Shown piece by piece: positions 4,125 to 18,502 of a stretch of DNA of 64,000 bases. The translations under genes were made by a program, and so were the position numbers. The stretch comes from a virus: IMG/VR virus record IMGVR_UViG_3300038412_000061, positions 1 to 64,000 of that record; one strand, given 5' to 3'. The notes under the pieces were generated by a model. That model made no database searches. It saw nothing but the letters and a program-made list of their open reading frames with translations, and was not told where the DNA came from. Position 1 is the stretch's first letter, and every line of letters starts with the position of its first letter.

Positions 4125-4130
4125 CGTGCC

Positions 4131-4433
4131 ATGACTATTAAAACGATAAGATGCCAACGTATCGACCCGCCGTCCGAGGCCGTATGGGTCACGGAGGAGA
4201 ACGTTGAGGAGGTCGCCGCCTGGGTGCGGTCCAAGAACCGCAACTTCCAAGCAGACGTTTACAGCAATGGAAAGCGTATCTGTCTGTGGAGCGATGATTC
4301 AGACTGGGTCAACTCCGTAGGGGTGAATAGCTACTTGATATACACGCCGGATGAGGAGTTCATTGACTCATGGGATTCCTTGGACTTCTACGATTTCGAA
4401 GGCGCCGAGTACTACAGGATTCTGGACAGGTGA
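4131..4433 (+). CDS. Hypothetical protein
   Basis: 100-aa leaderless ORF. Confidence 0.75.
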   Translation: MTIKTIRCQRIDPPSEAVWVTEENVEEVAAWVRSKNRNFQADVYSNGKRICLWSDDSDWVNSVGVNSYLIYTPDEEFIDSWDSLDFYDFEGAEYYRILDR

Positions 4434-10037: not shown

Positions 10038-11222
10038 TCAGTGAGTCCCCTTGTAATTAAGGATCTGGTGAAGGACGTGGTCTATTCGAGTTAGCTCTTT
10101 CTGTCGGTCCATCACCTCTTCTATGGGCTTGTAGGCAGATGGTGACTCATCCAGGAGCTCCTCAGCGTTTCCGCTGTTCCAGGCCTTGCCCTCCATCTGC
10201 GCGTTAAGCATTTCAACGGTAAGCTCTTTTTTAGCACGTCCGCGCGAGAGCAAGCGGCCAGCGCCGTGTGAAGAAGAATTTAGAGAGGCCTCATTTCCAA
10301 GGCCGGTAGTGATGTAAGTCGCTGCACCCATGGAACCGGGTATGACTCCACGATCACCCTTGTCCGCCTTGATGGCACCCTTACGCGTTACCCATAAACG
10401 CTTGCCCCAATGGTTCTCCTGCTCAGTGAAATTATGGTGGCAGTTGATTTGTGCTTCAGAGATGACATCAGCCATTGGAAGGAAGTTGCGCACTGCTTCA
10501 TATGTCCCGCGCATCATTACTTCACGGTTCTGAAGAGCCCATGACTGAGCCCAGCGAAGGTCGTAAATGTAGTTGTCGAACAGCCTGTTCCCCTCCAAGA
10601 AGTAGGCCAAATCGGGGTCAGGCAAGGTTTCGCCACTCTGGTGCATCAACTCCTTAGCTATCTTGATGTGCTTGGTAGCCAGTTGGTTGCCAATACCGCG
10701 CGAACCAGAGTGCAGTACGATCCATACACGGTCCAACTCGTCAAGACACACTTCTACAAAGTGGTTTCCAGCTCCCAATGTTCCCATCTGCTCGGTGATA
10801 GTGTTCACCTGCTTATCGCTCAAACTTGACGGCCCCATGTAGGCAGGAACTTTTCGGGTGTGGCGCATACGATCCCAGTACGAGGCGAACTCGTGACCCT
10901 GACCAACACCAGAAGGAACCGCCTTTCTGATGAGGCTGTGGAGCGCGCTCAAATCATCAGGAAGATCGTTAGATGTGAGGTTAAGACGCATGGCTATCAT
11001 TCCGCATCCGATGTCAACGCCAACGGCGTACGGGATGATGGCACCCTCTGTTGCTATGACGGAGCCGACCGGGACCCCGTATCCTTGGTGTCCATCAGCC
11101 ATAACAGCAACTGGCTTCTGAACGAAAGGAAGCTTGGCAACGTTGGAGGCTTGCTGTACAGCTCCAGCCTCTAGGTTTGGGTCCCAGCTTAGTACGTCTG
11201 GTGTCAAAAGTTCCGGGATCAT
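10038..11222 (-). CDS. rtcB: RtcB RNA ligase
   Basis: DGHQGYG, GVDIGCGM, GTLGAGNHFVE, LHSGSRG, NCHHN, RKGA, PGSMG, SHGAGR, DESPSAYK motifs. Confidence 0.97.
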   Translation of the reverse strand: MIPELLTPDVLSWDPNLEAGAVQQASNVAKLPFVQKPVAVMADGHQGYGVPVGSVIATEGAIIPYAVGVDIGCGMIAMRLNLTSNDLPDDLSALHSLIRKAVPSGVGQGHEFASYWDRMRHTRKVPAYMGPSSLSDKQVNTITEQMGTLGAGNHFVEVCLDELDRVWIVLHSGSRGIGNQLATKHIKIAKELMHQSGETLPDPDLAYFLEGNRLFDNYIYDLRWAQSWALQNREVMMRGTYEAVRNFLPMADVISEAQINCHHNFTEQENHWGKRLWVTRKGAIKADKGDRGVIPGSMGAATYITTGLGNEASLNSSSHGAGRLLSRGRAKKELTVEMLNAQMEGKAWNSGNAEELLDESPSAYKPIEEVMDRQKELTRIDHVLHQILNYKGTH

Positions 11223-13215: not shown

Positions 13216-13242
13216 CAGAAATTTGCATAAATTGAAAATTAG

Positions 13243-13313
13243 TCCGGGCAGCACGAATCGGACATGCGGAGTCGAAGATATAAGCTTCGATTGGATAACC
13301 AATCCATACCCGG
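13243..13313 (-). tRNA. Non-canonical tRNA, anticodon TAT (Ile)
   Basis: CCGGGTA/TGCCCGG acceptor, 6-bp anticodon stem, loop CTTATAT, 5-nt D-loop, T-loop TCCGATT. Confidence 0.6.
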
Positions 13314-13314
13314 T

Positions 13315-13389
13315 TGGTCGAGGTACCCGGAGTCGAACCGAGAGCGCAAGGCTTAGAACACCTTTGGCAGTCCATCCGCCACTACCCCG
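13315..13389 (-). tRNA. Atypical tRNA-Arg(TCT), CCA encoded
   Basis: AAGGT-GTTCTAA-GCCTT anticodon arm, TTCGACT T-loop, G at positions 8 and 32. Confidence 0.7.
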
Positions 13390-13391
13390 TT

Positions 13392-13560
13392 GTAGGTCAC
13401 TTTACGGGTGACCAATCCCCCGAAGCAAGTGGTAACCAACCCTAGTCTCTTCGGCACAACTAACGTCAACCGCCATGAATATCCACTTTGGTTAGAGTGG
13501 CCCATCTGGTGTCTCCCCAGCGTTCTGTCCTCACACGGCTCAGGCGCGTTAATTGCGTTC
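13392..13560 (-). ncRNA. Candidate multi-domain pseudoknotted ncRNA (~170 nt)
   Basis: 11-bp closing helix with two G.U pairs specific to this strand, four further helices, 7-nt loop-loop complementarity; own promoter. Confidence 0.65.
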
Positions 13561-13566
13561 GAATAA

Positions 13567-13595
13567 AGTGTAGCACATGTTATAATTTGTGTCAA
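13567..13595 (-). promoter_or_regulatory. SigA-type promoter
   Basis: TTGACA-17-TACACT with TGn. Confidence 0.85.
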
Positions 13596-13599
13596 GTGC

Positions 13600-13651
13600 A
13601 AAAACAAAAAGTACCCCGGCAATGTGTTTTGACAGGGATTGCTCCGGAGTT
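13600..13651 (-). terminator. Terminator of the upstream tRNA transcript
   Basis: ACTCCGG(A)GCAAT...ATTGCCGGGGT followed by ACTTTTTGTTTTT. Confidence 0.65.
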
Positions 13652-13656
13652 TTAAG

Positions 13657-13730
13657 CTCTAGGAGATGGGGTCGAACCACCAAGTCTCTCGGTTCAGAGC
13701 CGAGTATTTTTCCGGTTAAACTATCCTAGA
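13657..13730 (-). tRNA. tRNA-Gln(CTG)
   Basis: Cloverleaf; loop CTCTGAA. Confidence 0.88.
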
Positions 13731-13748
13731 ATGTAAAAATGCAAAGCG

Positions 13749-13834
13749 CGGATAGAGTGAGATTTGAACTCACGCGGCTATGACACCCTAACGGTTTAGC
13801 AAACCGTCCCCTTAAACCACTTGGGTACCTATCC
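13749..13834 (-). tRNA. tRNA-Ser(GCT)
   Basis: Long variable arm; loop TTGCTAA. Confidence 0.92.
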
Positions 13835-13838
13835 ATTG

Positions 13839-13909
13839 CTCTGGGAACTGGACTCGAACCAATACCTTACGGGTTCAAAGCCCGCCGTCCTGCCTTAGAC
13901 TATCCCAGA
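13839..13909 (-). tRNA. tRNA-Gln(TTG)
   Basis: Cloverleaf; loop CTTTGAA. Confidence 0.92.
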
Positions 13910-14046
13910 TCGATCACTGCGTAATTCTTGATTCTTCTTCCGTGCCCTATTTCGCGTTTTAAACTTCTGTCGCGGGGACGACACCATTCGCAAGAATGGC
14001 CCTCAGGGCAAACTTTCCAAGCTTTATTTCTAACGGTCCTGCTCAA
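13900..14046 (-). CDS. 48-aa basic peptide (MSRTVRNKAWKVCPEGHSCEWCRPRDR...)
   Basis: GGAGG RBS, TTG start; stop overlaps the 5' end of tRNA-Gln(TTG). Confidence 0.5.
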   Translation of the reverse strand: MSRTVRNKAWKVCPEGHSCEWCRPRDRSLKREIGHGRRIKNYAVIDLG

Positions 14047-14188
14047 AACTCTTCCTCCACTCAACTTCTTCTGAGCGCCGTCGGATCTTATGACTAGGAG
14101 ATTCCAAGCCGTGATCCATGCAGTAACAAATTCCCCTACCGGGGATTTTGCATAAAGCGGTTTTCATCCTGCCCATCATTTTAGCCAT
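14030..14188 (-). CDS. 52-aa basic peptide (MAKMMGRMKTALCKIPGRGICYC...KIRRRSEEVEW)
   Basis: ATG shares its A with the CCA of tRNA-Leu(CAA); fills the spacer. Confidence 0.5.
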   Translation of the reverse strand: MAKMMGRMKTALCKIPGRGICYCMDHGLESPSHKIRRRSEEVEWRKSFEQDR

Positions 14189-14263
14189 GGTCCTGATCTA
14201 GGGAGTCGAACCCTAACTGTGACGCTTTTGAAACGCCTATCTCTGCCATTGGATTACATCAGG
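14188..14263 (-). tRNA. tRNA-Leu(CAA) with short variable arm, CCA encoded
   Basis: Loop TTCAAAA; ~5-nt variable region. Confidence 0.8.
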
Positions 14264-14325
14264 ATAACTCCCATCTACCCCTGCATCTCACTTAAGAAAT
14301 TTCGCATCGGGGGTAGTAGGGATAG

Positions 14326-14396
14326 AGGCGAGAACAGGATTTGAACCCGTGTAAGAGGTGTTGCAAGCCTCCACCTAACCGCTCGGACATCCCGCC
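14326..14396 (-). tRNA. tRNA-Cys(GCA)
   Basis: TTGCAAC loop, U73. Confidence 0.85.
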
Positions 14397-14411
14397 ATTG
14401 TTACTGCTTCG

Positions 14412-14493
14412 TACTCATGGGGAGACTTGAACTCCCACCCCTTTCGGGACTAGTTTCTAAAACTAGCGCGGTTGCCGATTACGCCACACGAGC
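14412..14493 (-). tRNA. tRNA-Leu(TAG)
   Basis: Long variable arm; loop TTTAGAA. Confidence 0.92.
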
Positions 14494-14506
14494 ATGTATT
14501 ACTTAG

Positions 14507-14588
14507 TTCGGAAGAGGAGACTCGAACTCCTACGCTTTTAAGCAAGGGGGTTTAAGCCCCTCGTGGCTACCGATTACACCACTTCCGA
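14507..14588 (-). tRNA. tRNA-Leu(TAA)
   Basis: Long variable arm; loop CTTAAAC. Confidence 0.92.
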
Positions 14589-14675
14589 ATAGAACAGTCC
14601 ACTCTCGGATACTGTCATCTGTCACGACCTCCGCTGTCGTTGCGTTCGGTTCATAAGCATAGCCGAATTGCTTCG

Positions 14676-14749
14676 TGGAGAGTAAGGGACTCGAACCCTT
14701 GGTATCTTCGGTGCAAGCGAAGCGCAGTTGCCGCTGTAGCCAACTCCCC
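14676..14749 (-). tRNA. tRNA-Ala(TGC)
   Basis: G3.U70; loop CTTGCAC. Confidence 0.9.
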
Positions 14750-14851
14750 ATATAAGGTACTTTTAAGTCATGCCCAGGACTGGGGCTAGCGAGTAGTCAG
14801 AGACTACCGTCAACCTCCACCAGTATGCTTTTTACTTCATCCCAAGAAGAG

Positions 14852-14924
14852 TGGAAACGGTGGGATTTGAACCCACGACCTCTAGTATGCCATACTAGCG
14901 CACTACCAACTGTGCTACATCCCC
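14852..14924 (-). tRNA. tRNA-Ala(GGC)
   Basis: G3.U70; loop ATGGCAT. Confidence 0.93.
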
Positions 14925-15000
14925 ATGTTCTCGTCTCTCCGAGATGTCACCACAGTTCGCTGCGGTTGCAAAGTAGAAGCCTCTAGAAGCCGCTACTTCG

Positions 15001-15072
15001 TGGTTCCCGAACGGTTCGAACGTTCTCCGCAAGGTTTTCAAGCTCGCGTGCCTCCAGGTACACCAGAGAACC
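15001..15072 (-). tRNA. tRNA-Phe(GAA)
   Basis: Loop TTGAAAA. Confidence 0.85.
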
Positions 15073-15154
15073 AAGTGAAGCAGCGGGTGGTTATCCCAAT
15101 TGGCAACTCAGTTACGCAGGCAACGACTCTGCCACCGTGCCCTAAACTACTTCG

Positions 15155-15228
15155 TACAGACTGAGGGAGTCGAACCCCCGAACCTTCTCCTTGTAAAAGA
15201 GACACTCTGGCCACTGAGTTAAGTCTGC
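15155..15228 (-). tRNA. tRNA-Val(TAC)
   Basis: Loop TTTACAA. Confidence 0.9.
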
Positions 15229-15276
15229 ATGTGTCGGTCTTTCCCGACTGTATAGAGAGGCGCTAGCCACCCATCG

Positions 15277-15349
15277 TCTCCCCACACCGACTCGAACGGT
15301 GATCGCTGGTTTCGTAGACCAGAATTTTAATCCATTAAACTACAAGGAG
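15277..15349 (-). tRNA. tRNA-Arg(ACG)
   Basis: Loop CTACGAA. Confidence 0.9.
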
Positions 15350-15414
15350 AAGCGGGCCTTTTAGTGACATGCCCAGGTACACCATTAAATGGGTACTGCG
15401 GGGAAGATCCCCAG

Positions 15415-15488
15415 TTGTGCAAGAGGGATTCGAACCCACGACCGACCGCGTATCAGACGGTTGCTCTACCAGACCGAGCTACTGCACA
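15415..15488 (-). tRNA. tRNA-Ile(GAT)
   Basis: Loop CTGATAC. Confidence 0.9.
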
Positions 15489-15502
15489 TCGTTTACTGCT
15501 AG

Positions 15503-15578
15503 TAGCGGCGGCGGGATTTGAACCCGCGATTCCTTGGTTATGAGCCAAGTGCCGTAGACCAGACTGGGCCACACCGCA
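15503..15578 (-). tRNA. tRNA-Met(CAT), initiator-like
   Basis: Loop CTCATAA; 1:72 mismatch. Confidence 0.88.
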
Positions 15579-15640
15579 TCGAACTACCGGCTTCTCCCCG
15601 GCAGGCTGTTCGGGCCTTAACGCGGGGGAGAAGCACTAGG

Positions 15641-15712
15641 GGTGAGCGAGGAGAATCGAACTCCCGCGACTTGGGTCACATCCAAGCGGTCTACCACTAA
15701 CCTACATCCACC
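15641..15712 (-). tRNA. tRNA-His(GTG)
   Basis: G-1:C73; loop ATGTGAC. Confidence 0.9.
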
Positions 15713-15803
15713 ATGTCTTCACTGGGCGGAACCTCACCCCCAGCGTTACCATCCCCGCTAACCCCCGGATGGCTTCCATACTGTTGGAACGAACTTCTTT
15801 CCA

Positions 15804-15832
15804 AGTGTAGCATAACTCCTGCCACTTGTCAA
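15804..15832 (-). promoter_or_regulatory. SigA-type promoter inside the tRNA array
   Basis: TTGACA-17-TACACT with TGn. Confidence 0.85.
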
Positions 15833-15843
15833 ATCTTTTTTCG

Positions 15844-15916
15844 CACGGGCGGAGAGAATCGAACTCCCAGTGGCAGGTTTTGGAGACCTGCTGACATTCC
15901 AATATGCCACACCCAT
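15844..15916 (-). tRNA. tRNA-Trp(CCA)
   Basis: Loop CTCCAAA, G73. Confidence 0.88.
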
Positions 15917-15984
15917 ATAGTCCCGTCTCTCCAGGATGCCACGTTTCTTGGGTCGATCAACTCCCAGGGAAAAACGTCCCCTCG

Positions 15985-16056
15985 TTGACCCCGTGGGAGT
16001 CGAACCCACATGAAACAGATTAAGAGTCTGCCGCATAACCGCTCTGCCAGAGATCA
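15985..16056 (-). tRNA. tRNA-Lys(CTT)
   Basis: Loop CTCTTAA. Confidence 0.9.
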
Positions 16057-16067
16057 ATGTTACTGCG

Positions 16068-16145
16068 TCGTAGATGAGGGAATCGAACCCCCTTGCCGAA
16101 GCCAGTGGTTTACAGCCACCTGCCGCCCATGCGAGCCTATCTACG
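16068..16145 (-). tRNA. tRNA-Tyr(GTA), C1:G72
   Basis: Loop CTGTAAA; variable arm GCTTCGGC. Confidence 0.85.
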
Positions 16146-16156
16146 TTGTTACTACG

Positions 16157-16229
16157 CTCCAGTTAATGGGTTCGAACCATTCTATCACGGTTAACAGCCG
16201 CGCACATTCGCCAAGATTGTTAAACTGGA
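16157..16229 (-). tRNA. tRNA-Asn(GTT)
   Basis: Loop CTGTTAA, G73. Confidence 0.88.
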
Positions 16230-16242
16230 ATGCTTTACTACG

Positions 16243-16314
16243 TTCTCCTAGGGAATTCTGCCATCCCGACCCTGGGCTTAAAAGGCCCCTGCTCTTCTTC
16301 TGAGCTACAGGAGA
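16243..16314 (-). tRNA. tRNA-Lys(TTT) with non-standard T-loop
   Basis: Loop CTTTTAA; T-loop GGCAGAA. Confidence 0.8.
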
Positions 16315-16325
16315 TCGATACTTCT

Positions 16326-16402
16326 TGGTCTAGTAGGAGGGATTTGAACCCCCAGCCTGATGGCCCCAAACCACCCGCTCTACCAAGTTGAGCCACTACT
16401 AG
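16326..16402 (-). tRNA. tRNA-Pro(TGG), CCA encoded
   Basis: Loop TTTGGGG. Confidence 0.92.
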
Positions 16403-16413
16403 ATGATACTGCG

Positions 16414-16516
16414 TACTTCTTACATGGGGGGCGCTCTGCCCACTTAAGCTACCCCAGGACTTATGCCTCCGAAGAGAATGCCCGTGGACGGGATTCGAAC
16501 CCGCACCTCCCCCTCG
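16414..16516 (-). ncRNA. Circularly permuted tRNA-like RNA (YrlA Y-RNA-type module)
   Basis: T-arm GCGGG-TTCGAAT-CCCGT precedes an acceptor-like helix capped by CTC-TTCG-GAG, then D-arm TAGCTTAAGTGGGCAGAGC; ends pair GGGGG/CCCCC. Confidence 0.8.
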
Positions 16517-16590
16517 CGCCAGTAGCGGGTTTCGATCCCAGCTGCCTTTCGATTGACAATCGAATGCTCTCCCGAGTGAGCTATACCGGC
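16517..16590 (-). tRNA. tRNA-Asp(GTC)
   Basis: Loop TTGTCAA, G73. Confidence 0.88.
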
Positions 16591-17087
16591 TTGTGTAATT
16601 CTAGGTAACCTTTTATTTCTTTGGAGTAAGTTTCAAACCACCCCAATCTCGTATTGCAATAAAGACAAAGTAGTCCTCTAACTTCCCCTGTCGCATGATC
16701 GTGATCAACGGCGAAGTGACTGTTCTTTCTTCCTGAACCTCTTTTGCATATAGAACATTTACCACCCTGCAACTCCAAAAGAGCATCATATCTTTCCGTA
16801 GTGATTCCTGAAGTGGCCTTCAGATATGAAGATCTAGTCTGTTTTTTAAGTCTTTCGTTGCTACAAGTATTACAATATTTCTGAGCGGTACCGGTAGCTT
16901 GAAATTCTTTACTGCATTCCGCGCACTTTATCACAGGAAGTTTTCTAGTAACGACGGTCCCCTTGCCGGAGCACACGTTAGAGCAAAACCTTCCAGTCCC
17001 ACTTTTGACTTGATAGGGATGACGGTAAAAAACTACCTCACAACCATCAAGCTCACACACAACATCGATGCCAGATCGTTTTCTCAT
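16581..17087 (-). CDS. Endonuclease VII-family HNH nuclease with N-terminal Cys-rich repeats (probable homing endonuclease)
   Basis: QGGKCSIC...AVDHDHATGEVRGLLCLYCNTRLG; low GC; inserted among tRNAs. Confidence 0.9.
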   Translation of the reverse strand: MRKRSGIDVVCELDGCEVVFYRHPYQVKSGTGRFCSNVCSGKGTVVTRKLPVIKCAECSKEFQATGTAQKYCNTCSNERLKKQTRSSYLKATSGITTERYDALLELQGGKCSICKRGSGRKNSHFAVDHDHATGEVRGLLCLYCNTRLGWFETYSKEIKGYLELHKPV

Positions 17088-17093
17088 ACTTCT

Positions 17094-17122
17094 ATGGTAT
17101 CACAAGAACATTTAGAAGTCAA
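17094..17122 (-). promoter_or_regulatory. SigA-type promoter, leaderless HNH transcript
   Basis: TTGACT-17-TACCAT with TGn, ATG 6 nt downstream. Confidence 0.7.
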
Positions 17123-17141
17123 GACTTTACTTCTTACTACG

Positions 17142-17225
17142 CGGAGCCCGGAGGTACTGCCCCCCTGGGATTGCTCCCCGATTCGCTTTCAAGGCGAGCC
17201 CCCGACTATCCGAGGTTCAGACTCC
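17142..17225 (-). tRNA. tRNA-Ser(TGA) with non-standard T-loop
   Basis: Loop CTTGAAA; long variable arm; T-loop GCAGTAC. Confidence 0.78.
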
Positions 17226-17291
17226 ATTGTTGGAGCGTCGGGCTGATTAGACCCGTTAAAAGCGACTTCTTATAATTCGCTTAACGCTTCG

Positions 17292-17362
17292 TACTGTTAC
17301 GGGGTCTCGATCCCCGTCTGCCGCCCTGAGAAAGCGGAGTGCTACCATCACACCCTAACAGC
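17292..17362 (-). tRNA. tRNA-Glu(CTC)
   Basis: Loop TTCTCAG. Confidence 0.87.
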
Positions 17363-17458
17363 AAGTAAAAGTGGAACGGCTGACTAGGCCTAAGGCTAGA
17401 ACGACCTCTCGGGCAAAATCGTCAATCTCGCCGTAGGAACATCTATCCAACCACTTCG

Positions 17459-17531
17459 CAGTCTGACGGAGACTCGAACTCCGGCTACGAGGGTGAAAAC
17501 CTCGCGTCCTAGGCCACTAGACGACCAGACC
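17459..17531 (-). tRNA. tRNA-Glu(TTC)
   Basis: Loop TTTTCAC. Confidence 0.93.
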
Positions 17532-17546
17532 ATGTTTTACTACTAG

Positions 17547-17618
17547 AGTCTCAGGCGGGGTACGATCCCGCGACCTCCTACTTGGCAAGCAGGCGTTCTT
17601 CCGCTGAACTACTAAGAC
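17547..17618 (-). tRNA. tRNA-Gly(GCC)
   Basis: Loop TTGCCAA, U73. Confidence 0.88.
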
Positions 17619-17630
17619 ATTGTTACTTCG

Positions 17631-17701
17631 ACCGTCATGCCGGATTCGAACCGGCGCCGCCTACTTGGAAGGAAGGAAGTCTACCACTAACCTAACAACG
17701 G
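17631..17701 (-). tRNA. tRNA-Gly(TCC)
   Basis: Loop CTTCCAA, U73. Confidence 0.88.
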
Positions 17702-17713
17702 ATTGTTACTGCG

Positions 17714-17785
17714 TGCCGAAATGAGGGAACGATCCTCATCCTCTTCGTTACCAACGAAGCGTGCTTCCTTTATCACTATTACGGC
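17714..17785 (-). tRNA. tRNA-Thr(GGT)
   Basis: Loop TTGGTAA. Confidence 0.85.
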
Positions 17786-17853
17786 ATGTGAAGTGTTCGG
17801 GTTAAGTCATTCCCGATGAAGATGCGCTGCCTTGGACCGCCCTCACCACCTCG

Positions 17854-17924
17854 TTCCCCCGGACGGATTCGAACCGCCGCATCTGAGTTACGAACTCAGA
17901 GTTCTCCCGCTAAACTACAAGGGA
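17854..17924 (-). tRNA. tRNA-Thr(CGT)
   Basis: Loop TTCGTAA. Confidence 0.88.
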
Positions 17925-17929
17925 ATGCG

Positions 17930-18002
17930 TGCCGCTAACAGGATTCGAACCCATGACCTGACGCTTACAAGGCGCCTGCTCTACCACCTGAGCTACAACG
18001 GC
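17930..18002 (-). tRNA. tRNA-Thr(TGT)
   Basis: Loop CTTGTAA. Confidence 0.93.
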
Positions 18003-18011
18003 ATGTTTACT

Positions 18012-18040
18012 ATTGTACTGCAAATTCTTTAGGATGTCAA
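18012..18040 (-). promoter_or_regulatory. SigA-type promoter of the tRNA array
   Basis: TTGACA-17-TACAAT. Confidence 0.85.
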
Positions 18041-18043
18041 GCA

Positions 18044-18111
18044 GAAAGAAAAAAAGAGCGCAACCCCAATAAACACTTTCCCTCCCGAAAGTACTTACCA
18101 GAGCTGCGCTC
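18044..18111 (-). terminator. Long hairpin terminator
   Basis: GAGCGCAGCTCTGGTAAGTACTTTC / GAAAGTGTTTATTGGGGTTGCGCTC followed by a T run. Confidence 0.8.
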
Positions 18112-18122
18112 CTCGAACCGCT

Positions 18123-18199
18123 TGGTGGCGGAGACTCGGAATCGAACCGAGGACATCTGGTTATGAGCCAGATCGGAGCACCAGCCCCAGCCTCCCGCT
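18123..18199 (-). tRNA. Atypical tRNA with CAT anticodon, CCA encoded
   Basis: Loop CTCATAA, TTCGATT T-loop; bulged and mismatched acceptor stem. Confidence 0.75.
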
Positions 18200-18205
18200 A
18201 GGACC

Positions 18206-18502
18206 TTACTTCAAATCTTTACTGCCTACTGCTGGTACTACAGGTGCCGGGGTCGGATTCGACTTCGGCTGGGGGAGCAAACCGAGCAACCACCCGAGCT
18301 TCGGATACTTCGCTTCAAGTGACAGAATCACTGCAAAGTAGATCGGTGAGCCAATTGCGGTGATCTCACCCCAGGCCGCACCATGAAAGTGACCAATCTT
18401 GACAGCGGCCCACGCCAGTAGTCCTGTGACGATTGTCGAAACCGCGCCTCGAAGGGCGGTTCGGACTACTGTAGTGTTGAGTGAGTTCAGTGGCGATGTC
18501 AT
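18206..18502 (-). CDS. Putative actinophage-type holin / 2-TM membrane protein
   Basis: VVRT...TGLLAWAA...YFAVILSLEAKYPKLGWLLG..QP pattern; leaderless start. Confidence 0.6.
   Translation of the reverse strand: MTSPLNSLNTTVVRTALRGAVSTIVTGLLAWAAVKIGHFHGAAWGEITAIGSPIYFAVILSLEAKYPKLGWLLGLLPQPKSNPTPAPVVPAVGSKDLK

Follow-up and report, generated by a model that had tools for sequence, protein, structure and literature searches.

The stretch of DNA analysed here, hereafter the window, is the first 64 kb (64,000 nucleotides) of the 95.9-kb viral record IMGVR_UViG_3300038412_000061 from IMG/VR (genome G000), which CheckV rates as complete. On its minus strand, at positions 16426-16516, a phage transfer RNA (tRNA) array contains an element whose product, we are confident, is a real RNA that folds like a tRNA and is related to the tRNA-like domain of the Y RNA YrlA, but that lacks the handle through which Y RNAs bind Ro60. 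What this RNA does is less certain. Our overall reading, to which we assign a probability of about one half, is that it is co-transcribed with the phage tRNAs and acts in trans as a mimic of the tRNA body that cannot be charged, serving as a decoy or adaptor uncoupled from Ro60.

Structure and conservation of the element

Read 5′ to 3′, the element begins with the base right after the discriminator of tRNA-Asp (16517) and runs through one strand of a closing stem, a variable loop, a T arm, a sealed acceptor-like stem, U8-A9, a D arm and the second closing strand (Table 1). The original prediction had parsed the same segments and placed their start directly at the tRNA-Asp discriminator, and both points hold, the parse letter for letter on the minus strand from 16516 to 16426 and on through the tail. 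Written as DNA, the D arm is GCTT/AAGTGGGCA/GAGC at 16449-16433, followed by G and by CCCCCC (16431-16426). The 7-bp acceptor-like stem stands in exact tRNA register, abutting the T stem on one side and U8-A9 on the other. As in a permuted tRNA gene, the 3′ half lies upstream of the 5′ half and the acceptor strands are complementary. Neither ARAGORN nor the Rfam tRNA model calls the element as a tRNA, and it departs from a canonical tRNA in having no anticodon loop and a sealed acceptor end.

Relatives found through their terminase carry a module in the same slot between tRNA-Asp and tRNA-Pro at 85% (locus L004) and 72% (L006) terminase identity. The T stem GCGGG/CCCGU has become GCUGG/CCAGC in these relatives by compensatory change, and their acceptor strands are wholly different with pairing retained. 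The linker that seals the acceptor is 21 nt long in L004, with a mini-hairpin of its own, and is reduced to a direct C-UUCG-G cap in L006. From these three phage copies we built a covariance model, R1, and two pattern scans of IMG/VR followed by an R1 search of the fetched loci revealed further modules, single or in tandem, in L044, L052, L065, L069, L071, L072, L074, L076, L078, L079, L082, L085 and L090. Modules outside the training set score 42-63 bits with R1, and ordinary tRNA-tRNA junctions at most 40 bits. Several of the new modules again adjoin tRNA genes: two tandem modules follow tRNA-Ala in L044, a 166-kb phage, two follow tRNA-Asn in L052, one lies between tRNA-Phe and tRNA-Pro in L076, and those of L071 and L072 follow tRNA-Leu or stand beside tRNA-Pro. 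Double modules are found in contigs without tRNA arrays in L065, L074, L078, L082 and L090. The leader CGA recurs after the upstream tRNA in L004, L006, L044 (first copy), L071 and L076.

Permuted tRNA genes are usually proposed to have arisen by tandem duplication, and the element might accordingly be viewed as a non-functional relic of a duplicated tRNA that later suffered deletions. The junction of the two L044 modules does mimic a pseudo-tRNA, which ARAGORN reports as "tRNA-???" with a 4-base anticodon. Nevertheless, we regard a relic as very improbable: phages with 72-85% terminase identity keep the element in one slot while its stems change in a compensatory manner, many unrelated contigs carry modules with covarying helices and a covarying tertiary pair, and the window's own tRNA array holds no close parent tRNA for the element.

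Covariation is seen in all four helices and in the tertiary pair 15:48. In an alignment of 28 rows that was fitted to the model structure and includes 5-7 rows that are tRNA junctions or doubtful, pairing is found in 96.4% of cells, against 73.7% in shuffles and 43-52% in slid controls. Changes on both sides occur in 20 of the 21 pairs of this alignment, with all 7 acceptor pairs covarying, and a curated count over 21 rows agrees with this picture. The closing stem covaries as well (GGAGGG/CCCUCC, GGCC/GGCC, GGGC/GCCC and CGGGG/CCCUG), and the Levitt pair 15:48 is G:C in 12, A:U in 7 and G:U in one of 20 curated modules. Other features of the tRNA core are also kept, namely U8-A14, the GG of the D loop, the canonical T loop and a variable loop of the form AGGUY or AGAU. 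Given the covariation of the helices and the compensatory Levitt pair, the RNA very probably adopts the L-shape of a tRNA. The acceptor hairpins of the family have stems of 3-10 bp that are capped mostly by UUCG and otherwise by other small loops, and acceptor closure is, as judged from these sequences, a conserved trait of the module family.

Two further pairings were considered and dropped. In both L004 and L006 the leader CGA could pair with UCG of the tail, which the window copy does not allow, and a His-like G-1:C73 pair is likewise present in L004 and L006 and not in the window.

Some individual modules merit separate mention. In unrelated contigs, modules stand directly before or after tRNA-Pro (window, 16326-16402; L072, 13736-13810; L076, 3837-3910; L071, near 4130-4280). 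A variant module after tRNA-Leu(GAG) at L072 12414-12512 departs from the others in its T loop, which is non-canonical, and in its D loop, into which a hairpin is inserted, with the closing stem GGAGG/CCUCC kept and covarying. The double modules at L074 5633-5800 and L090 11583-11770 differ from the bare form in the window in being enclosed by an outer stem of 5′ and 3′ flanks, which covaries between both contigs and keeps one A.C mismatch; this stem is a possible protein-binding handle. Some 350 nt upstream of its double module, the small phage contig of L082 carries a two-piece (permuted) transfer-messenger RNA of alphaproteobacterial type, at 1193-1552.

Table 1. Coordinates of the element's segments and of associated genes; positions are those of the window unless a locus is named.
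Feature	Position	Strand	Basis or remark
tRNA-Asp(GUC)	16517-16590	-	no encoded CCA; discriminator G at 16517; ARAGORN; Rfam tRNA 49.5 bits
Leader CGA, 3 nt	16514-16516	-	read from the sequence
Closing stem, 5′ strand GGGGG	16509-16513	-	equivalent to anticodon-stem positions 39-43
Variable loop AGGU	16505-16508	-	last base U48 pairs with D-loop A15 (Levitt pair)
T arm, 5-bp stem GCGGG/CCCGU, canonical loop UUCGAAU	16488-16504	-	sequence, Rfam alignment, model R1
Acceptor-like stem, 3′-strand equivalent CCACGGG	16481-16487	-	followed by C16480 at the discriminator position
Sealing linker, 22 nt	16459-16480	-	sequence; mini-hairpin CUC-UUCG-GAG at 16476-16467
Acceptor-like stem, 5′-strand equivalent CCUGGGG	16452-16458	-	6/7 pairs with 16481-16487, one G.A mismatch
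U8-A9, D arm GCUU/AAGUGGGCA/GAGC and G26	16432-16451	-	GG in D loop
Closing stem, 3′ strand CCCCCC	16426-16431	-	pairs with GGGGG (5 bp)
Tail/spacer, 23 nt, up to tRNA-Pro	16403-16425	-	kept in L004 and L006; holds GAAGUA
tRNA-Pro(UGG)	16326-16402	-	CCA encoded; ARAGORN and Rfam tRNA
RtcB RNA ligase	10038-11222	-	Pfam PF01139, 372 bits
tRNA nucleotidyltransferase (CCA-adding)	L093 11255-12691		outside the window, same phage genome; Pfam and PHROGs

Kinship with Ro60-linked Y RNAs

Although the only families that Rfam reports over the element region at gathering score are tRNAs, the best non-tRNA family is YrlA (RF02553), at 24.4 bits (E 0.004) against a gathering cut-off of 69. This match covers the T arm, acceptor and D arm, and forces a terminal stem through tRNA-Asp and the tail with non-standard pairs. 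By the Rfam model, which the original prediction had proposed as one check, the element falls short of YrlA. The test is a weak one, however, and the sub-threshold score cannot be used by itself because a tRNA-Met/tRNA-Ile junction scores alike, at 24.5 bits.

The pattern of the phage module also matches 114 stretches in bacterial genome DNA, mostly from Actinomycetota such as Streptomyces. Some of these are ordinary tRNA-tRNA junctions, and most share the T arm, the sealed acceptor and the D arm with the phage module. TROVE (PF05731), the domain by which we searched for Ro60, is encoded in all five tested genomes with bacterial matches, as compared with 2 of 14 control genomes, and in both loci checked a TROVE or TROVE+vWA_Ro60 gene follows the RNA on its own strand, at a distance of 160-250 nt. 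Because TROVE is present and adjoining, we take the bacterial matches to be Ro60-linked Y RNAs of the YrlA type. Like the element, these Ro60-adjacent RNAs fall below the Rfam YrlA gathering score, and R1, built from phage copies only, scores them at 46-62 bits. On the strength of this match, the element is in sequence and structure a relative of the YrlA tRNA-like domain rather than a recent derivative of one of the array's tRNAs, which agrees with the earlier proposal that its order of T arm, closed acceptor and D arm is that of YrlA.

The Ro60-adjacent Y RNAs (loci L095-L208, for example L156 3575-3653 and L174 3892-3965) contain an anticodon-arm-like hairpin whose "anticodon" varies, and ARAGORN calls them tRNA-Lys, Met, Ile, Thr, Cys, Gly, Asn, Phe or Tyr. 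The finders of tRNA genes miscall both tandem-module junctions and Ro60-linked bacterial RNAs as tRNAs, and the Rfam YrlA model misses both kinds.

Y RNAs bind Ro60 through a long terminal stem formed by the 5′ and 3′ ends of the RNA (PMC4201824). As had been predicted, the element has no room for such a stem, with only 3 nt before its closing stem, and the phage encodes no recognisable Ro60: TROVE is absent from the whole 95.9-kb genome and from five other related or similar viral records with modules, of which G001 and G003 are complete, and the bacterial relatives that TROVE adjoins serve as a positive control for this search. DUF2828 (PF11443) is not found in five records (G000, G001, G003 and two partial ones), and positions 16403-16516 contain neither an ACAGCAA motif nor a site resembling TACAGCAA. 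No hidden Ro60-like protein emerged from the TROVE and DUF2828 searches or from the open reading frames of at least 399 amino acids, all of which Pfam and PHROGs assign otherwise (portal, scaffold/protease, capsid, sheath, tail, exonucleases, helicases and the CCA-adding enzyme); frames of 200-399 amino acids were scanned only in part. The element thus has the tRNA-like domain of YrlA, without the Ro60-binding stem, the TROVE gene or the Rfam gathering score. The suggestion that it is a minimal Y RNA accordingly stands for ancestry and shape and fails for the Ro60 site and the Ro60 partner. Mimics of the YrlA type that accompany Ro60 are already known from over 250 bacteria and phages (PMC4201824; Chen et al. 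2014); in the literature we found no description of modules without Ro60 and without a handle inside phage tRNA operons.

Ro60 and YrlA are common in actinobacteria, and the element might still be a non-canonical Y RNA for a Ro60 (Rsr) encoded by the host, which is probably an actinobacterium. The module's kinship with Ro60-adjacent bacterial RNAs is consistent with this view, as is the predominance of Actinomycetota among the bacterial pattern matches. The terminase and tail sheath are closest to actinophage proteins, at 26-32% identity, and point to the same hosts. When the region or the module was compared with cultured phage genomes at the nucleotide level, in near and in distant searches, nothing was found, and the phage has no close cultured relative. 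An exact 35-mer scan of IMG/VR was likewise negative. We nevertheless consider a host Ro60 partner quite unlikely, because the known Ro60 site is a long terminal stem (PMC4201824) where here 3 nt precede a 5-bp stem, and because the terminal stem that cmscan forces has non-standard pairs.

Expression, processing and RtcB

No site resembling a promoter or a terminator belongs to the element itself, which lies in an array of 31 tRNA genes (13242-18198, minus strand) that according to ARAGORN covers all 20 amino acids. DNA of the record is present in mine-drainage metagenomes, and in a mine-drainage metatranscriptome from a separate study (run X2) 56% of the words of region 15000-18500 are found at 100% identity. 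A marine run (X3, 5% of words) was discarded as a clue to habitat, its matches being only conserved tRNA pieces of other organisms. One RNA contig of 504 nt is colinear with 16743-16427, running from the endonuclease VII gene across tRNA-Asp and the entire module as far as the closing stem's fifth C, and then jumps from 16427 to 14850, bypassing the tail, 1.58 kb and 12 tRNAs. Position 14850 belongs to a trailer that starts 1-2 nt past the discriminator of tRNA-Ala(GGC). Because only one base is shared at this joint, it is not a k-mer chimera, and the DNA run has only the unskipped form across 16427/14850. This hints at an RNA 3′ end at the closing-stem base that was joined to the 5′ end of the processed trailer by template switching or ligation. 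Alternatively, the joint could be a 1.58-kb deletion variant.

Two observations on the surroundings can be added. The open reading frame of the endonuclease VII family lies within the tRNA array (16581-17087, minus strand), with its stop codon inside the first bases of tRNA-Asp, and shares one RNA contig with tRNA-Asp and the module. A purine-rich spacer motif (AAGAAGUA or GAAGUA) occurs about 10 nt 5′ of tRNA genes or just past tRNA 3′ ends, at 16403-16425, 16310-16325 and 14825-14850 in the window, at 5843-5863 in L004 and at 1255-1273 in L006, and may be a processing signal.

We infer that the element is released from the operon transcript by the same enzymes as process the tRNAs on either side of it. 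RNase Z or an equivalent would cut after the tRNA-Asp discriminator, RNase P acting at the 5′ end of tRNA-Pro would free the 3′ side, and trimming would then proceed back to the closing stem, leaving a stable non-coding RNA about 90 nt long. Conceivably, the fold works in cis instead, recruiting RNase P, RNase Z or exonucleases to process or stabilise the flanking tRNAs or mRNAs, and that the excised RNA has no role. Modules abut tRNA 3′ ends with a 2-3-nt leader, often before tRNA-Pro (window, L004, L006, L072 and L076), and double modules in contigs without tRNA arrays lie between operons before terminase, portal or capsid genes. The want of a promoter and terminator would also suit a cis element. 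However, a plain tRNA or hairpin would suffice for this purpose, whereas the modules preserve a tertiary core and are kin to Y RNAs that act in trans. These two properties argue that the folded product is itself recognised, and we therefore hold a purely cis-acting role to be unlikely.

The RtcB gene that the original prediction had invoked is present on the element's strand, about 5 kb farther along as transcription proceeds, and RtcB is encoded in all four complete module-bearing genomes (G000, G001, G003 and G014). The association is not specific to the module, since all four genomes also have large tRNA arrays, which RtcB commonly accompanies (PMC7824862). Incomplete records in which RtcB is missing carry no weight on this point. 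The RtcB frames in G001:C1:2205-4235 and G003:C1:132758-134827, of 749 and 760 amino acids, have a large gap in the Pfam match that looks like an intein-type insertion.

These genes bring up the earlier suggestion that the element is a permuted pre-tRNA, which RtcB or another ligase would circularise and RNase P and RNase Z would open at the acceptor to yield a working tRNA. Besides the presence of RtcB and the position of the 3′ half before the 5′ half, this idea draws on the ends of the element: tail RUGU and leader CGA are conserved in the window, L004 and L006, and if joined give a 7-nt loop with U33, anticodon GUC and G37. The window has an extra C, however, with six C against five G in its closing strands, and the joined ends of L044, L052, L071 and L076, outside the window lineage, yield no loop with U33 and R37. 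A linker that could be removed from the acceptor is present in the window and L004, but L006 and many other members are capped directly by a tetraloop. The identity set of bacterial tRNA-Asp includes G73 and C38, with which the C at the discriminator position and A38 do not agree, and the phage already has a tRNA-Asp(GUC). RNase Z and RNase P leave 5′-phosphate and 3′-hydroxyl ends. Such ends are not substrates for RtcB, which needs a 3′-phosphate or cyclic phosphate and a 5′-hydroxyl (PMC7824862). Furthermore, the RNA contig departs from the genome after the stem and not after RUGU. We therefore think a permuted pre-tRNA improbable. No circular junction was seen in the sole RNA run, which is kept as contigs and so is no evidence against such a junction.

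Possible function and relation to known systems

Because it has no anticodon loop and a closed acceptor, the element can presumably neither decode nor, while sealed, be aminoacylated. Because elbow, core and variable loop are kept, recognition by factors that read the tRNA body is to be expected. The RNA would be a complete tRNA body circularly permuted at the anticodon loop, with its acceptor closed by a capped hairpin and its two ends emerging from a 5-bp G/C "anticodon stem". Acting in trans, such a molecule would occupy a factor that recognises the tRNA elbow or core rather than the anticodon or CCA end. Candidate targets would be a host defence system or toxin directed at tRNA, the partner of the YrlA tRNA-like domain, or an enzyme of tRNA processing or repair such as RtcB. 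We put such a decoy or adaptor function at close to, if a little under, even odds. The original prediction's suggestion of a decoy that resembles an anticodon-cleaved tRNA may also be right.

Several observations weigh against this reading. Anticodon nucleases generally read the anticodon loop, so the element, which lacks one, would be a poor decoy for them. The modules of other contigs have no conserved protein neighbour, only terminase, portal, capsid, primase and ERF genes. The minimum free energy structure of the window copy is another fold, at -38.0 kcal/mol against -25.2 for the tRNA-like fold, a gap of 12.8 kcal/mol, and in nearest-neighbour folding the copy does no better than shuffles (z = -0.8). 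Thermodynamics alone would thus miss the element, although for L004 the unconstrained minimum is the permuted cloverleaf. Transcription is known from one metatranscriptome kept as contigs, in which DNA carry-over is possible, the mature ends are inferred, and the doubtful rows in the 28-row alignment must be borne in mind. Finally, by analogy, RNase P could open the 7-bp acceptor with its long linker in the window copy and in L004, in which case the RNA might not stay sealed.

This last point leads to a different product. In Mycobacterium smegmatis, YrlA has a 7-bp acceptor stem, the feature to which its cleavage by RNase P is ascribed; this cleavage occurs both in vivo and in vitro, and the RNA then gains CCA (PMC4201824). 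By this precedent, RNase P could cut the linker 5′ of the acceptor-like stem, the 3′ side could be trimmed and CCA added, and the outcome would be a two-piece mimic of annealed "halves" in which the CCA end is free and the anticodon stem open, serving as a substrate, primer or bait for which a CCA end is required. The window and L004 have 7-bp stems with linkers of 22 and 21 nt, positions -1 and 73 are unpaired in both, and a CCA-adding enzyme is available, here encoded by the phage. However, the stem in the same slot of L006 is capped by C-UUCG-G, and the stems of the family, 3-10 bp long, carry UUCG or small-loop caps, from which it appears that closure rather than opening was selected. In view of these tetraloop caps in L006 and most family members, an opened product also seems unlikely.

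A bolder form of the decoy or adaptor reading, which we consider doubtful, is that phages detached the tRNA-like domain of a Y RNA from Ro60 and made of it a stand-alone RNA weapon or tool. As an anti-defence decoy, it would jam the partner of the host's YrlA or a tRNA-directed immune nuclease. As a circle, its juxtaposed ends would be sealed by the phage RtcB to become exonuclease-proof, and the 16427 joint would have arisen as a side effect of ends fit for ligation.

What the tRNA-like domain of bacterial Y RNAs does has been a standing question since 2014. The phage module presents this domain on its own, without Ro60 or the binding stem; many phages conserve it, and in the present one, as in several more, it resides within a tRNA operon. 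This conservation implies that the tRNA-like domain has a job independent of Ro60. The module thereby offers a minimal bait of about 90 nt with which the domain's partner might be found. If that partner proves to be a host factor of tRNA-directed defence or repair, the modules would represent a new class of RNA-based phage counter-measure.

Other small RNAs are known to travel with phage tRNAs. The tRNA gene cluster of phage T4 contains rnaC and rnaD, small stable RNAs without an assigned function that are co-transcribed and co-processed with the phage tRNAs; they are not described as permuted tRNAs, no kinship with the element in sequence or structure is known, and the likeness is one of gene setting. 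Circularly permuted tRNA genes, which PMC3400036 and PMC4238349 mention, occur in Cyanidioschyzon merolae and in certain other algae and archaea. They share with the element a 3′ half upstream of the 5′ half and a linker between the acceptor strands. However, the algal and archaeal genes rely on a bulge-helix-bulge, a splicing endonuclease and a ligase to pass through a circle to a decoding tRNA, whereas the phage element has no such motif or enzyme, no general anticodon loop once its ends are joined and, in many relatives, no removable linker.

The closest parallel is YrlA itself, with which the element shares the order of variable region, T arm, closed acceptor-like stem-loop and D arm, as well as a canonical T loop, the GG of the D loop and a compensatory 15:48 Levitt pair, the last being the pattern on which Chen et al. 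based their case that YrlA mimics tRNA (PMC4201824). Compared with the actinobacterial copies, the strand made up of the G-run, AGGUC and GCGGGUUCGA is nearly identical. What differs is the way the molecule is closed: in place of the long terminal stem of YrlA, the element has a 5-bp closing stem preceded only by CGA, with tRNA-Asp upstream. In the bacterial RNAs the G-run pairs upstream to make an anticodon-arm-like hairpin, and long flanks exit between this hairpin and the D arm. In the phage element, the G-run pairs instead with the C-run past the D arm, and the ends of the molecule sit at the position of the anticodon loop.

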